In this document: positions 9,000 through 41,716 of the stretch, piece by piece | Position numbering within the stretch: position 1 is the first letter of the stretch | Layout: each line of letters opens with the position of its first letter | NCBI RefSeq assembly: GCF_000027125.1 | Contig: NC_017626.1 | Strand: one strand, 5' to 3' | DNA from: Escherichia coli 042 | GTDB lineage: Bacteria; Pseudomonadota; Gammaproteobacteria; Enterobacterales; Enterobacteriaceae | DNA: 64,000 nt | Position numbers and translations under genes: made by a program | The notes under the pieces: generated by a model | The model's input: the letters and a program-made list of their open reading frames with translations, nothing else | Told to the model about the DNA's origin: nothing | The model's database searches: none

Positions 9000-11756
9000 A
9001 TGACCAACTACAGCCTGCGCGCACGCATGATGATTCTGATCCTGGCACCGACCGTCCTTATTGGTTTATTGCTGAGTATCTTTTTCGTTGTGCATCGCTA
9101 TAACGACTTGCAGCGTCAACTGGAAGATGCCGGAGCCAGCATTATTGAGCCGCTTGCAGTTTCTACTGAATATGGCATGAGCCTGCAAAATCGCGAATCT
9201 ATCGGTCAGTTAATAAGCGTACTGCATCGTCGCCATTCCGATATTGTTCGCGCGATTTCGGTTTATGATGAAAATAACCGACTCTTTGTCACCTCCAATT
9301 TTCATCTTGATCCCTCATCAATGCAGCTCGGCAGCAACGTGCCGTTTCCTCGCCAGCTCACTGTCACTCGTGACGGCGATATTATGATCCTCCGCACGCC
9401 GATTATTTCTGAGAGTTACTCCCCCGACGAATCGCCCAGTAGCGATGCCAAAAATAGTCAAAATATGTTGGGATATATTGCGCTTGAGCTGGATCTTAAA
9501 TCGGTTCGCTTGCAGCAATATAAAGAGATCTTTATTTCCAGCGTGATGATGCTGTTTTGTATCGGTATTGCGCTTATTTTTGGCTGGCGCTTAATGCGCG
9601 ATGTAACCGGTCCGATTCGCAATATGGTGAATACCGTCGACCGCATCCGTCGCGGGCAACTCGACAGCCGTGTGGAAGGATTTATGCTCGGCGAGCTGGA
9701 TATGCTGAAAAACGGTATCAACTCGATGGCAATGTCGCTGGCTGCTTATCACGAAGAGATGCAGCACAATATCGATCAGGCGACGTCCGATCTGCGTGAA
9801 ACGCTGGAGCAGATGGAAATTCAGAACGTTGAGTTGGATCTGGCGAAAAAGCGTGCCCAGGAAGCGGCGCGTATTAAATCCGAGTTTCTGGCAAATATGT
9901 CACACGAGCTGCGTACACCACTGAATGGTGTTATTGGCTTTACCCGCCTGACGCTGAAAACAGAATTAACACCAACGCAGCGCGATCACCTGAATACGAT
10001 TGAACGTTCGGCAAATAATTTGCTGGCAATTATTAATGATGTTCTCGACTTCTCGAAACTGGAAGCAGGTAAGCTGATTCTGGAAAGTATTCCATTCCCA
10101 CTACGCAGCACGCTGGATGAAGTCGTTACCCTGCTGGCACATTCTTCTCACGATAAAGGGCTGGAACTGACGCTCAATATTAAAAGCGACGTGCCCGATA
10201 ACGTAATTGGCGACCCACTACGATTACAGCAAATCATCACTAACCTGGTGGGGAATGCAATTAAATTCACCGAGAATGGCAACATTGATATTCTGGTAGA
10301 AAAACGTGCGCTGAGTAATACCAAAGTTCAGATTGAAGTGCAGATTCGGGATACCGGCATTGGTATTCCTGAACGCGATCAATCGCGCTTATTCCAGGCC
10401 TTCCGACAGGCTGATGCCAGTATTTCCCGCCGTCATGGTGGCACCGGGCTGGGGCTGGTGATTACACAAAAACTGGTTAATGAAATGGGCGGCGATATTT
10501 CGTTCCATAGCCAGCCGAATCGCGGTTCAACTTTCTGGTTCCACATTAATCTCGATCTGAATCCGAACATTATTATCGAAGGGCCATCCACCCAATGCCT
10601 CGCCGGCAAGCGCCTGGCCTATGTCGAACCAAACTCCGCAGCAGCGCAATGTACGCTGGATATTTTAAGTGAAACGCCGCTGGAAGTGGTTTATAGCCCA
10701 ACGTTCTCCGCGCTGCCTCCCGCGCATTACGACATGATGTTATTAGGCATTGCGGTGACCTTCCGCGAGCCGCTAACAATGCAACATGAGCGATTAGCGA
10801 AAGCGGTATCGATGACCGATTTTCTGATGCTGGCACTTCCTTGCCATGCACAAGTCAATGCTGAAAAACTTAAGCAAGATGGTATCGGCGCGTGTCTGCT
10901 GAAACCATTAACACCTACGCGCCTGTTACCTGCCCTGACGGAATTTTGTCATCACAAACAAAACACGCTTTTGCCTGTAACCGATGAAAGTAAGCTGGCA
11001 ATGACAGTCATGGCGGTTGATGACAACCCCGCTAACCTGAAACTTATCGGCGCATTGCTGGAAGATATGGTGCAACATGTGGAACTTTGCGATAGCGGGC
11101 ATCAGGCGGTTGAACGGGCGAAACAGATGCCGTTCGATTTGATCTTAATGGATATTCAAATGCCGGACATGGACGGCATTCGGGCCTGCGAACTCATCCA
11201 CCAGCTCCCCCATCAGCAACAAACGCCAGTTATCGCGGTAACGGCGCATGCAATGGCCGGGCAAAAAGAGAAGCTGCTTGGCGCAGGGATGAGCGATTAT
11301 CTGGCGAAACCGATTGAAGAAGAGCGATTGCATAATTTGCTGTTGCGCTACAAGCCTGGCAGCGGCATTTCCTCTCGCGTCGTGACGCCTGAAGTCAACG
11401 AAATTGTGGCGAACCCGAATGCAACCCTCGACTGGCAACTGGCACTACGCCAGGCAGCAGGAAAAACCGATTTAGCGCGCGATATGCTGCAAATGTTACT
11501 CGATTTCCTGCCTGAAGTTCGCAACAAAGTTGAGGAACAGCTGGTTGGAGAAAACCCGGAAGGCCTGGTTGATTTGATTCATAAACTGCATGGCAGTTGC
11601 GGCTATAGCGGTGTGCCGCGTATGAAGAATCTCTGCCAACTGATCGAACAACAGCTACGTAGCGGTACTAAAGAAGAAGATTTGGAGCCGGAGCTGCTGG
11701 AACTGTTAGACGAGATGGATAATGTAGCGCGCGAAGCCAGCAAAATTCTAGGGTAA
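9000..11756 (+). CDS. barA: Hybrid sensor histidine kinase BarA (TM, HAMP, HisKA, HATPase, receiver, HPt)
   Basis: 918-aa ORF; H-box SHELRTPLN, receiver domain, C-terminal HPt region. Confidence 0.95.
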
Positions 11757-11987: not shown

Positions 11988-13328
11988 TTAACGTACCATG
12001 CACGGACGCTTGTTATCGAACGTCCAGCCAGGAATCAGATACTGCATTCCCATTGCATCGTCACGCGCGCCAAGCCCGTGCTTCTGATACAGCTCGTGGG
12101 CTTTCATCACCTGATCCATATCGATTTCTACGCCCAATCCTGGTTTTTGCGGCACCTGTACCAGCCCGCCTTTGATCTCAAACGGTTCTTTGGTCAGACG
12201 CTGATTGCCTTCCTGCCAGATCCAGTGTGTATCAATCGCGGTGATTTTACCCGGTGCAGCAGCGGCTACATGGGTAAACATCGCCAGGGAGATATCGAAA
12301 TGATTGTTAGAGTGTGAACCCCAGGTCAGGCCAAATTCATGGCACATTTGCGCCACACGTACCGAACCTTGCATCGTCCAGAAATGCGGATCCGCCAGCG
12401 GGATATCAACGGATTGTAACGAGAGCGTATGGCCCATCTGCCGCCAGTCGGTGGCGATCATATTGGTTGCGGTTGGCAGGCCAGTCGCGCGACGGAACTC
12501 TGCCATCACTTCACGCCCGGAGAAACCTTGCTCCGCACCACACGGATCTTCTGCATAAGCCAGCGAACCTTTCAGGTATTTACCGATTTTAATCGCTTCG
12601 TTCAGCGACCAGGCACCGTTAGGATCGAGGGTAATACGCGCCTGTGGGAAGCGTTGCGCCAGTGCCACAATAGATTCGGCTTCTTCTTCCCCGGCCAGTA
12701 CACCGCCCTTCAGTTTGAAATCGTTGAAGCCATATTTTTCATATGCCGCTTCCGCCAGGCGCACCACCGCATCCGGCGTCATCGCTTCTTCGTGACGCAG
12801 GCGATACCAGTCACATTTATCATCCGGCTGGCTTTGATACGGCAGCGGTGTGGCTTTGCGATTACCGACGAAGAACAGATAACCGAGCATTTCGACTTCG
12901 CTACGCTGTTGACCATCGCCCAGCAGCGATGCCACGTTAACCCCCAGATGCTGCCCCAGCAGATCCAGCATTGCCGCTTCTATACCGGTAACCACATGAA
13001 TAGTGGTCCGCAAATCAAATGTCTGCAAACCGCGCCCGCCGGCATCACGATCGGCAAATGTATTACGCACCAGCGTCAGAACGTTTTTGTATTCACCCAG
13101 CGTTTTACCCACCACTAGCGGAATCGCATCTTCCAGCGTTTTACGGATTTTCTCGCCGCCGGGAATTTCCCCTACGCCGGTGTGACCAGAATTATCTTTG
13201 ATAATCACAATATTACGCGTGAAGAACGGTGCGTGTGCACCACTCAGATTCATCAGCATACTGTCATGGCCCGCCACCGGGATGACCTGCATTTCAGTAA
13301 CAACAGGCGTCGTAAATTGAGAACTCAT
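11988..13328 (-). CDS. gudD: Glucarate dehydratase
   Basis: 446 aa from ATG at 13328 ([22 protein letters not shown]); enolase-superfamily fold; ORF-track start is an upstream TTG. Confidence 0.9.
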
Positions 13329-16984: not shown

Positions 16985-17767
16985 TTAGGAACTTATCTCT
17001 CCATCCTGACCCGATGGCGCACTGAACTCAACCCTTTCATTTTCAGGAAGCAGACCGCGCCAGCCAAATTGTGATAACGCCTGCATCCAGGTGTCGTCCA
17101 GGCCCGCGTGAATAGTCAGCGGCTCGCCAGTAAAAGGATGCGTCAATGACAACTGACTGGCATGCAACATTAACCGCTGAAGGCCAAAATGTTCAGCACC
17201 GCTGCGATTCTGGCGTAAATCACCATGTTTGCTGTCGCCAATAATCGGGTGGCGCAAATGGGCAAGATGGCGACGGAGCTGGTGCTTGCGTCCGGTTTTC
17301 GGCTCCAGTTCCACCAGGCCGTAGCGCGTGGTCGGGTAACGTCCGGTCGCTACCGGCATTTCTACGGTCGCCAGACCGCGATAATGCGTCACTGCTGGCT
17401 GTGGGCCTTTATCTTCGCGGGCAAATTTATCAGCGATTTTGTCCAGTTCTTCCACCAGTGGATAATCCAGAACTGCTTCTTCCATCAACCAGCCGCGCAC
17501 AATCGCATGGTAACGTTTCTGGATTTGGTGCTGTTCAAACTGTTGTGCCAGCAGCCGTCCGGCCTCGCTGGATAATCCCATCAACAACACACCAGAAGTT
17601 GGTCGGTCCAGACGATGAGCAGTAAACACATGCTGGCCTATCTGGTCACGCACGGTTTGCATGACCACTACTTTCTCGTCGCGATCCAGCCAGCTGCGGT
17701 GAACCAGCCAGCCGGAGGGTTTATTTACCGCAACCAGCCATTCATCCTGATAGAGTATTTCCAGCAT
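16985..17767 (-). CDS. truC: tRNA pseudouridine65 synthase
   Basis: 260-aa ORF with RluA-family catalytic motif ([12 protein letters not shown]). Confidence 0.85.
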
Positions 17768-18096
17768 TAGCTCGCATCATCCGCAAAAAGAGCATCCAGT
17801 TTTTCCAGCTCAGCCAGAATAAGCGCGCGTTGCGGGTGGTCCGTCGCCAGCGCCATTTCATAATAGGGTGCAACGGCAAAAGCGCCCGGTAACGGCTGGT
17901 TGTTATCTAACAAATCGTGCATTCGCGGGATCAGCACCCACTGCAACCACTCCAGTGGTTCCATGGTGTCCATAAAGAACGGTTGGGTACTGTTAAATTG
18001 ATGCGGCTGGGGTTCATCGTTTTGCCAGTGCTGATGTTCACGCAGTAATGCTTCAAGCGCCTGCAGCTGGAGACGAACGCGGTCATGAGTGGTCAT
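17767..18096 (-). CDS. yqcC: DUF446-family protein YqcC
   Basis: 109-aa ORF, stop overlapping truC start; synteny. Confidence 0.8.
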   Translation of the reverse strand: MTTHDRVRLQLQALEALLREHQHWQNDEPQPHQFNSTQPFFMDTMEPLEWLQWVLIPRMHDLLDNNQPLPGAFAVAPYYEMALATDHPQRALILAELEKLDALFADDAS

Positions 18097-18141
18097 AAAG
18101 CAACCTCAATAAGAAAAACTGCCGCGAAGGATAGCAGGAAT

Positions 18142-18507
18142 AAAAAAAGGGAGCACTGTATTCACAGTGCTCCCGGTTCGTTTCGCAGCATTCCAGCTAC
18201 TTTTGTTGCTCCCTGCTCATCCTTGACAACTTTTCCTCTGGCCTTGCGGCCAATCGTTCATCCTGAACTATTGCTTCCTGCTCACACCACCCCGATGTGA
18301 TACTTCATCCTGAAGTGTCCCTGGCCTTCCTGGCCCACCGAATCATCCTGACCGGTTCTCATTCTCCATCCTGGAGGTGTCCTTTAACGCGTCCTGCGTC
18401 ATCCTCTTCGCTTCATCCAGAAGCCTTTCCCTGAAACACCATCCTGGTGTGTCCTTCAGAAGTGTCATCATCCTGATGTTCACTTCGTTGTCTGACTCCC
18501 TGTCGAC
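18142..18507 (-). ncRNA. csrB: CsrB small RNA (CsrA-sequestering sRNA)
   Basis: Minus strand begins GTCGACAGGGAGTCAGACAACGAAGTGAACATCAGGATG and carries at least 10 CAGGA(U/A)G-type GGA motifs; ends in hairpin gggagcactgtgaatacagtgctccc plus U-run at 18149-18174. Confidence 0.85.
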
Positions 18508-18680
18508 GAAGATAGAATCGTCTTTTTCGCGAAGTCTTACAAGGCGCTTACAGACAATGCCTTAAGGAAAATTTCATATGAAAGTTAAGGATTAACAAGC
18601 AATATATTGATTTTAAATGAAAATAACGATTCTTATCTTTTTAAGTATTCGCTTATTTCCTGGCGATCTCCTACAGAGTC

Positions 18681-18698
18681 TGTAAGAGATCTCTCACA
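18681..18698. promoter_or_regulatory. 18-bp near-palindrome TGTAAGAGATCTCTCACA, matching the UvrY(SirA) response-regulator box found upstream of csrB
   Basis: Read directly, about 175-190 bp upstream of the csrB 5' end. Confidence 0.55.
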
Positions 18699-18717
18699 AC
18701 CAGATGGGGTATTTGGA

Positions 18718-19263
18718 TTACAGAAGAGGCTTAAGTTGATTAAGGAATTCCGCAAGATTTGAGGCTAAATGCGCCCGTTTACGTGTTCCCAGCGTCTCTT
18801 TGCACACTTCACCGGAGAGATTACACACCGAGATGACCTCTAACTCTTCTTCCAGCGTCGCGATAAATAGCGTGGGCGGCAGTTTTAGCCTTTTCTGAGT
18901 CACCAGATGACCAATCAGATTTTCCTGCACCCGACGGAAGTCGTCTTCACTCCAGGTTTGCAGCAATGTCAGTTTAATATCGCCAAACTGCGCGTGCATA
19001 TCCCCGGCAAACTGAGTCGTATAAAAGGTATGAATTGTGGGTTGTATCACAATATCAAAAGCGCGTTCAACCGCGTTTACATTTTGTTCCCCGGTAAACG
19101 GCTGGGGTTGCCAGTATACGGCGTCTTCGGTGGTTGAAATAATGCACGGTGAAGGAACGCCGTACAGTTCCTCACTCAACGGCCAGCTTTTATGCTCTTC
19201 ATGCCACGCATCGCAGTAGCGTGCAGTAAAATCTTTCAGGGCTTGTGCGGTCAAATCGTCCAC
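18718..19263 (-). CDS. syd: SecY-interacting protein Syd
   Basis: 181-aa ORF; synteny next to csrB. Confidence 0.85.
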
Positions 19264-36727: not shown

Positions 36728-36933
36728 ACTTCCTGAGCCGGAACGAAAAGTTTTATCGGAATGCGTGTTCTGGTGAACTTTTGGCTTACGGTTGTGATGT
36801 TGTGTTGTTGTGTTTGCAATTGGTCTGCGATTCAGACCATGGTAGCAAAGCTACCTTTTTTCACTTCCTGTACATTTACCCTGTCTGTCCATAGTGATTA
36901 ATGTAGCACCGCCTAATTGCGGTGCTTTTTTTT
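36728..36933 (+). ncRNA. gcvB: GcvB small RNA, divergent from gcvA
   Basis: ACTTCCTGAGCCGGAACGAAAAG start, GU-rich repeats (gttgtgatgttgtgttgttgtgtttg), two hairpin/U-run terminators, the last ending in T8 at 36926-36933. Confidence 0.85.
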
Positions 36934-39927: not shown

Positions 39928-40025
39928 GCCTGATGCGCTACGCTTATCAGGCCTACATAACTCCTGCAATATTTTGGATTTGCATGATTTGTAGGCCGGA
40001 TAAGGCGTTCACGCCGCATCCGGCA
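39928..40025. repeat. Pair of REP elements (BIME-like) in the mltA-tcdA spacer
   Basis: gcctgatgcgctacgcttatcaggcctaca (39928-39957) and tgtaggccggataaggcgttcacgccgcatccggca (39990-40025). Confidence 0.6.
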
Positions 40026-41418: not shown

Positions 41419-41495
<77 letters not shown>

Positions 41496-41528
41496 ATTAA
41501 AATTTGATGAAGTAAAGCAGTACGGTGA

Positions 41529-41605
<77 letters not shown>

Positions 41606-41639
41606 ATCAAAATTTGATGAAGTAAAAGCAGTACGGTGA

Positions 41640-41716
<77 letters not shown>

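Follow-up and report, generated by a model that had tools for sequence, protein, structure and literature searches.

The csrB small RNA gene and its distal UvrY box in the yqcC-syd gap of an Escherichia coli-type chromosome

Introduction

What is encoded in a stretch of chromosome that gene annotation leaves blank, and how is it switched on? The question is raised by an ORF-free gap of 621 bp (18097-18717) between yqcC and syd, two genes on the minus strand, within the 64-kb window analysed here (the window being the whole stretch of DNA). The original prediction, read from the raw sequence, was that this gap, given as 620 bp, encodes the small RNA CsrB on the minus strand, with a binding box for the regulator UvrY (SirA) about 180 bp upstream of its 5′ end and the gene of the sensor kinase BarA 7 kb away. 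CsrB sequesters dimers of CsrA through GGA motifs, and CsrA binding is established for the K-12 RNA, from which the RNA in the window differs at 3 of 369 positions.

Our analysis leads to the same answer, and we put the probability that the gap is the csrB locus of an E. coli-type chromosome at about 97%; no evidence contradicting this explanation was found. CsrB, its UvrY box, the dependence on IHF and BarA are all known, textbook parts of the Csr system, and biologically nothing here is new. Of practical use is the finding that csrB goes unmarked in most RefSeq annotations. None of the 55 E. coli RefSeq records listed carries a feature under the 621-bp gap (in one PGAP-annotated record whose gene map was checked, L002, it lies at 12001-12621), and against these 55 the csrB ncRNA is annotated only in the curated K-12 record, which bears out the expectation that a known element would be invisible to the ORF track. 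With csrB missing from standard annotation, scans that depend on ORFs or on annotation overlook a master regulator that a covariance-model pass recovers at once. The locus also serves as a positive control, in which an sRNA and its distal activator site were recognised from raw sequence alone.

Identity and boundaries of the RNA gene

A whole-window scan with Rfam places a match to RF00018 (CsrB/RsmB) at 18139-18498 on the minus strand, with a score of 383.9 bits (E = 1.1e-111) against a gathering score of 71 bits. The alignment is untruncated, spanning model positions 1-356 of 356, and no non-standard pairs were flagged in the consensus hairpins. In the K-12 reference, csrB (b4408) is annotated as an ncRNA between yqcC (b2792) and syd (b2793). 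We aligned the gap with this reference and found 366 of the 369 bases of the RNA to be identical, with the K-12 annotation fixing the ends of the gene at 18507 and 18139, while over the whole gap 614 of 621 bases are identical and the neighbouring genes are alike. The upstream neighbour is supported by a score of 285.8 bits for its 181-aa product against the model of the SecY-interacting protein Syd (NF003439). The predicted content and strand of the gap thus stand, and its predicted length was one base pair short. The span originally proposed for the gene with its box, 18142-18698, is right at its upper end, which is the exact outer edge of the palindrome, and wrong at its lower end, which falls 3 nt inside the gene. 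The features of the locus are collected in Table 1.

Table 1. Features of the csrB locus and barA, in window coordinates
Feature	Position	Strand	Basis
barA, tripartite sensor kinase phosphorylating UvrY	9000..11756	+	918-aa ORF; NF008318
yqcC, flanking gene downstream of csrB	17767..18096	-	109-aa ORF; position as K-12 b2792
csrB, 369-nt small RNA sequestering CsrA	18139..18507	-	Rfam RF00018 and alignment to K-12 b4408
Intrinsic terminator of csrB: stem-loop 18149-18174, then T run 18139-18148	18139..18174	-	Stem and Rfam consensus
Putative csrB core promoter	18514..18542	-	Geometry from the K-12 annotated 5′ end, and conservation
Candidate IHF site AATCAATATATTG, -105 to -93	18600..18612	-	Match to WATCAANNNNTTR
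Third UvrY half-site TGTAGGAGA, 5 bp from the inverted repeat on the promoter side	18667..18675	-	PMC4682653 and conservation
UvrY-P binding site (by identity), 18-bp inverted repeat TGTGAGAGATCTCTTACA, centre -182.5	18681..18698	-	Identical to the published footprint
syd, flanking gene upstream of the UvrY box	18718..19263	-	181-aa ORF, NF003439; position as K-12 b2793

Of 5426 complete E. coli genomes, 5425 contain the gap, and in 22 of these no single match spans 80% of it. Identity reaches 99.8% in the top E. coli matches and is 99% or more in 791 records, and the differences from K-12 are ordinary alleles. One additional place matching the gap sits on a plasmid. In E. coli strain MARGA_3 (L004, 2315-3492), an IS3-family element lies within csrB at approximately nt 92 of the RNA, a natural disruption of the gene.

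Elsewhere in the window, the RNA GcvB is found at 36728-36933 on the plus strand (Rfam RF00022, 199 bits, full model), and a short match to the sRNA ES036 (CssrF; RF02751) lies at 39949-39991 on the minus strand, scoring 46.5 bits (gathering score 37.6). At 41419-41716 on the plus strand, three tRNA-Met genes (anticodon CAT) stand in tandem, approximately 110 bp apart and each matched by Rfam with 61.4 bits; this trio is probably the metZWV initiator-tRNA cluster.

Architecture of the RNA

About a dozen short hairpins make up the RNA and expose GGA in their loops; single-stranded linkers carry more of these motifs, and an intrinsic terminator closes the 3′ end. The csrB strand contains 22 GGA, 14 AGGA and 9 CAGGA[A/T/C]G motifs, compared to 2 GGA on the opposite strand, a minor correction to the original count of at least ten. 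Over both strands of the window, every other stretch of 369 nt has fewer than 22 GGA, the means for the two strands being 4.3 and 4.9. Dinucleotide shuffles of the RNA retain 15.3 ± 2.5 GGA, so that the observed number is only ∼2.7 standard deviations higher and much of the GGA excess is built into the composition, and the placement of the motifs is more informative than their number. The minimum-energy fold puts 10 of the 22 GGA entirely within hairpin loops and another 7 entirely within other unpaired segments, while just one, in the terminator stem, is fully paired. The centroid fold places 12 GGA in hairpin loops, and most of the motifs have an unpaired probability above 0.7. Folding thus puts GGA motifs in single-stranded loops, as had been anticipated. 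All 11 GGA-bearing hairpins of the Rfam consensus are retained in the window. The folding energy of -122.6 kcal/mol compares with -98.3 ± 5.1 kcal/mol for the shuffles (z = -4.81), and none of 100 shuffles was as stable.

The terminator, called strong in the original prediction, has a stem of 11 pairs, 7 of them G-C, and a loop of 4 nt, and TTTTTTTATT (T7) comes after it. Its stem is the last hairpin of the Rfam consensus, and compensatory changes occur in it across genera.

Could the gap encode one or more small proteins, instead of an RNA or besides it? The mechanical ORF list does hold a 46-aa ORF with a GTG start (18343-18483, minus strand) and plus-strand ORFs of 62-71 aa; they occur in that list only, and the K-12 reference annotates the ncRNA only. 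The pattern of conservation is that of an RNA. Among the CsrB matches of eight enterobacterial genera, aligned with MAFFT (imperfectly in the 5′ third, where the hairpins are repetitive), compensatory changes are seen in 21 of 52 consensus pairs, while the GGA sequences of the loops, such as CCUCCAGGAUGGAG, are invariant across the eight. Compensatory stems around invariant loops fit a structured RNA and do not fit a coding sequence. In addition, the length of the RNA varies among genera from 291 to 361 nt, with many indels. We therefore regard a protein-coding role for the gap as very improbable and read it as the csrB gene.

The distal UvrY box

Upstream of csrB lies an 18-bp inverted repeat, which reads TGTAAGAGATCTCTCACA on the plus strand and TGTGAGAGATCTCTTACA on the csrB strand. 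It is symmetric at 8 of 9 positions, and its centre is 182.5 bp upstream of the csrB start at 18507, in keeping with the predicted distance. The box fits the inverted-repeat consensus TGTAAGNNNNNNCTTACA and has no mismatch to the looser pattern TGTRAGNNNNNNCTYACA, with which a scan of the 64-kb window returned no further UvrY box. The pattern TGTRAGAGATCTCTYACA has a single match in the window even when up to 3 mismatches are allowed. An inverted-repeat finder with a minimum arm of 12 nt missed the 9+9 box and gave instead an overlapping pair, GATCTCCTACAGA and TCTGTAAGAGATC, in which the right half of the box is matched to a third half-site.

The identification of the palindrome as the UvrY/SirA box holds letter for letter. 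In E. coli csrB, the same sequence was described centred at -183/-182, as the centre of a barA-dependent ChIP-exo peak that is cross-linked in vivo and as the sole region protected by phosphorylated UvrY (UvrY-P) in DNase I footprints (Zere et al., 2015; PMC4682653). From these published experiments on the identical sequence, the box in the window is taken to be bound by UvrY-P.

The core of the palindrome, AGATCT with GATC at its centre, is at the same time a BglII restriction site and a Dam methylation site, and it might be thought that the palindrome is a product of chance, or simply such a site with no role in csrB transcription. At 1 mismatch, the looser pattern TGTRAGNNNNNNCTYACA would be expected by chance 0.28 times per window, but the full palindrome pattern is expected just 0.03 times. 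The UvrY-P footprint and the barA-dependent cross-link in vivo were obtained on the same sequence in the same position (Zere et al., 2015), and 100 of 125 box occurrences listed across other Gammaproteobacteria lie beside a strand-specific GGA-rich stretch, leaving a chance or purely enzymatic origin exceedingly improbable. The palindrome is best read as the UvrY box of csrB.

The occurrences in other genomes come from a scan for the exact box pattern in one genome per species, which gave at least 120 loci with at least 125 box occurrences. A stretch was counted as GGA-rich when the 500 bp on one side of the box held at least 12 GGA, at no less than 2.5 times the background of the locus and on one strand only; the count of 100 in 125 refers to the matches listed. 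These loci come from Enterobacterales, Vibrionaceae, Shewanella, Halomonadaceae, Alcanivorax and Kangiella. That the 18-bp box does not vary among them is no independent evidence, as the search pattern forced it. Rfam found CsrB beside the box in all 10 loci tested from Enterobacterales and Vibrionaceae. The distance from the box centre to the 5′ end of the CsrB match is 175-202 bp in seven Enterobacterales loci (191.5 bp in the window), and ∼263-274 bp in the Vibrio and Photobacterium loci. Syd or YqcC is encoded in 55-57 of the 120 listed loci, including those of Photobacterium and Shewanella.

In the Shewanella, Alcanivorax, Vreelandella, Kangiella, Salinicola and Porphyromonadaceae loci, Rfam returned no Csr/Rsm match at the gathering score, and a possible role of the box at divergent sRNAs in such Rfam-negative loci was judged by GGA counts alone. 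In Shewanella gelidimarina, the exact box stands beside a stretch with 27 GGA on the sense strand, yet no Csr/Rsm family of Rfam matches. The loci of Alcanivorax, Vreelandella, Kangiella and Salinicola have weak GGA enrichment only. A box was also recorded on a contig labelled uncultured Porphyromonadaceae (Bacteroidota; L046, 14541-14558), where it has no GGA-rich flank and may be a chance match or belong to a mis-binned contig.

The third half-site and the Dam sites

Zere et al. also pointed to TGTAGGAGA, located 5 bp downstream of the repeat, and described it as “partially conserved” in E. coli and Salmonella (Zere et al., 2015). In a promoter alignment of 14 enterobacterial genera, four blocks are conserved besides the box, namely this third half-site, the core of an IHF site, the TTG of the -35 element and the -10 element. 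All 14 genera keep the TGT, G, A and T of the third half-site.

A polarity is apparent when the loci that combine a box with a GGA-rich sRNA are compared (100 among the matches listed, from Enterobacterales, Vibrionaceae and Shewanella). On the sRNA side, 92 of the 100 loci have GTRRG 5-6 nt past the box, compared to 7 of 100 on the far side, and the full TGTRRG, after a gap of 4-5 bp, is found in 74 of the 100. This polarity is independent of the search pattern, which did not force it. Among the sRNA loci listed, the third half-site is near-universal and faces the sRNA, an observation that goes slightly beyond the published description (PMC4682653) and is a small addition to it. It is a bolder suggestion, and one that we hold doubtful, that the third half-site might be an obligatory, orientation-setting part of the activating site for regulators of the UvrY/GacA type rather than a “partially conserved” extra. 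Were it obligatory, the bound form of UvrY-P would be larger than a dimer and would always be oriented toward the promoter.

GATC Dam sites occur both at the dyad of the repeat (18688-18691) and in the third half-site (18665-18668), 23 bp from each other. More speculatively, the binding of UvrY could depend on the methylation state of these GATC sites; no paper connecting Dam methylation, or the GATC of the box, with csrB transcription turned up in a search of the literature.

The candidate IHF site and the putative core promoter

Between the box and the gene, a match to the IHF consensus marks a candidate IHF site by its sequence and by its position. The core C, A and TT of this site are invariant, or nearly so, across the 14 genera. 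In the published work an IHF site lies between the two regions that are cross-linked to UvrY, a position with which the match in the window agrees, and both the binding of UvrY and the expression of csrB needed IHF to reach their optimum (Zere et al., 2015; PMC4682653). Of the seven differences from K-12 in the gap, four are crowded into 17 bp at this site. Two of them (18606 and 18603) occupy NNNN positions that the IHF consensus leaves unspecified, and the other two (18599 and 18590) lie just outside it on the promoter side. Because the changes inside the site affect unspecified positions only, the IHF consensus is kept.

From the annotated 5′ end of K-12 csrB, which sets the geometry, and from conservation, we infer a -35 hexamer TTGTAA (18537-18542), a 17-bp spacer, a -10 hexamer GATTCT (18514-18519) and a start at the G at 18507. 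Across the aligned genera, the TTG of the -35 hexamer is invariant and a -10 resembling GATTCT is conserved. A consensus scan of 18000-18800 found no sigma-70 promoter, as the scan needs 9 of 12 matches and the putative csrB promoter has 7 of 12. Such a weak match to the consensus fits a promoter that depends on an activator.

Two direct TGTAAG hexamers, 11 bp apart on the minus strand, are found at 18547-18552 (-45 to -40) and 18536-18541 (-34 to -29), the second overlapping the -35 hexamer. The pair lies inside the promoter-proximal ChIP-exo cross-linking region, which was not footprinted by UvrY in vitro (Zere et al., 2015). We considered a proximal UvrY site at this pair and found it unsupported. 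The upstream hexamer occurs only in Escherichia and Citrobacter, and only the TTG of the -35 hexamer is invariant across the 14 genera; no proximal site is therefore claimed, in agreement with the negative footprint (PMC4682653).

Linkage to barA and the proposed mechanism

The barA reading frame translates without a stop, and residues 1-917 of its 918 match the BarA equivalog model NF008318 (NCBIfam) with 1624.1 bits, against a cut-off of 890 bits. The stop of barA is 6.4 kb from the 3′ end of csrB and 6.9 kb from the UvrY box, close to the 7 kb of the original prediction. With both genes identified, the window does contain the sensor gene and the terminal sRNA target of the BarA-UvrY-CsrB cascade, as had been proposed; uvrY and csrA are absent from the 64 kb. 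A syntenic E. coli record gives the order barA, gudD, gudX, gudP, yqcA, truC, yqcC, the unannotated gap and syd, and the intervening gudPXD operon accounts for the 6.4 kb that separate barA from csrB in the window. In Escherichia albertii (L006, 2516-7354), the gud operon is absent and barA and csrB are 1.7 kb apart, with only yqcA, truC and yqcC between them. Several Enterobacterales among the short loci that were fetched have barA near csrB. Because BarA acts in trans, by way of UvrY, whose gene lies elsewhere, we infer that the linkage is an inherited gene order and not a mechanism, and no cis mechanism is suggested.

The CsrA, UvrY and IHF binding in the following model is drawn from literature on identical or near-identical sequence. 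BarA would phosphorylate UvrY, which is encoded outside the window, as in published work on the identical sequence. UvrY-P would then bind the inverted repeat at -182.5, and IHF presumably bends the DNA between this distant activator and the promoter. The resulting transcript would bind many CsrA dimers via its GGA motifs, titrating CsrA off its mRNA targets.

Comparison with known systems

The closest comparison is with csrB of K-12 (b4408; PMC4682653), where the gene, its neighbours and its 369-nt length are the same, and which shares with the window an identical inverted repeat, an identical third half-site and the same bases at the IHF consensus positions. The two differ by seven single bases in 621 bp, four around the IHF site and three in the RNA. 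At +52 the window has A in place of the K-12 C, turning CAGGA into AAGGA. At +175 a G-U pair of K-12 is a G-C pair in the window, and at +340, in the terminator stem, a G-U pair of K-12 is an A-U pair. The csrB ortholog of Salmonella enterica, compared from the published description, has the same inverted repeat as its SirA box, centred at -182/-181, with the same third half-site, and an IHF site between two cross-linking sites (Zere et al., 2015; PMC4682653).

A further comparison is with csrC of E. coli (b4457), which also specifies a GGA-hairpin RNA that sequesters CsrA and is also activated by UvrY-P from far upstream. The left half-site of csrC, TGTGAGA(C/G)A, matches the csrB box at 8 of 9 positions, while the right half of the K-12 csrC site TGTGAGACATTGCCGATA (L003, 1369-1386) is degenerate, giving 12 of 18 overall; this alignment of the palindrome with the csrC site agrees with the published one, as does a TGTAAG 16 bp upstream of the csrC site (PMC4682653). 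An IHF site or IHF dependence is not reported for csrC in that work. That the RNA in the window is CsrC or another member of the Csr/Rsm clan (Rfam CL00106), within which CsrB and CsrC are alike in GGA-hairpin architecture and UvrY box, is next to inconceivable, since Rfam keeps the best of overlapping clan matches and kept CsrB, over the full model and at 383.9 bits, and since the locus aligns to K-12 csrB with syd and yqcC, whereas K-12 csrC is 246 nt long and lies between yihA and yihI.

Farther afield, the exact box stands beside GGA-rich stretches in Vibrio, Photobacterium and Shewanella, and the GGA enrichment is weaker in Vreelandella (Halomonas). The other gammaproteobacterial RNAs of the Rsm/Csr type are shorter or divergent, with several loci below the Rfam gathering score. 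The counterparts of CsrB are RsmY and RsmZ with a GacA box in Pseudomonas, and CsrB, CsrC and CsrD with VarA in Vibrio. They share one logic, in which a kinase of the GacS/BarA type and a regulator of the GacA/UvrY type act through an upstream TGTAAG...CTTACA box on a GGA-rich sponge RNA.
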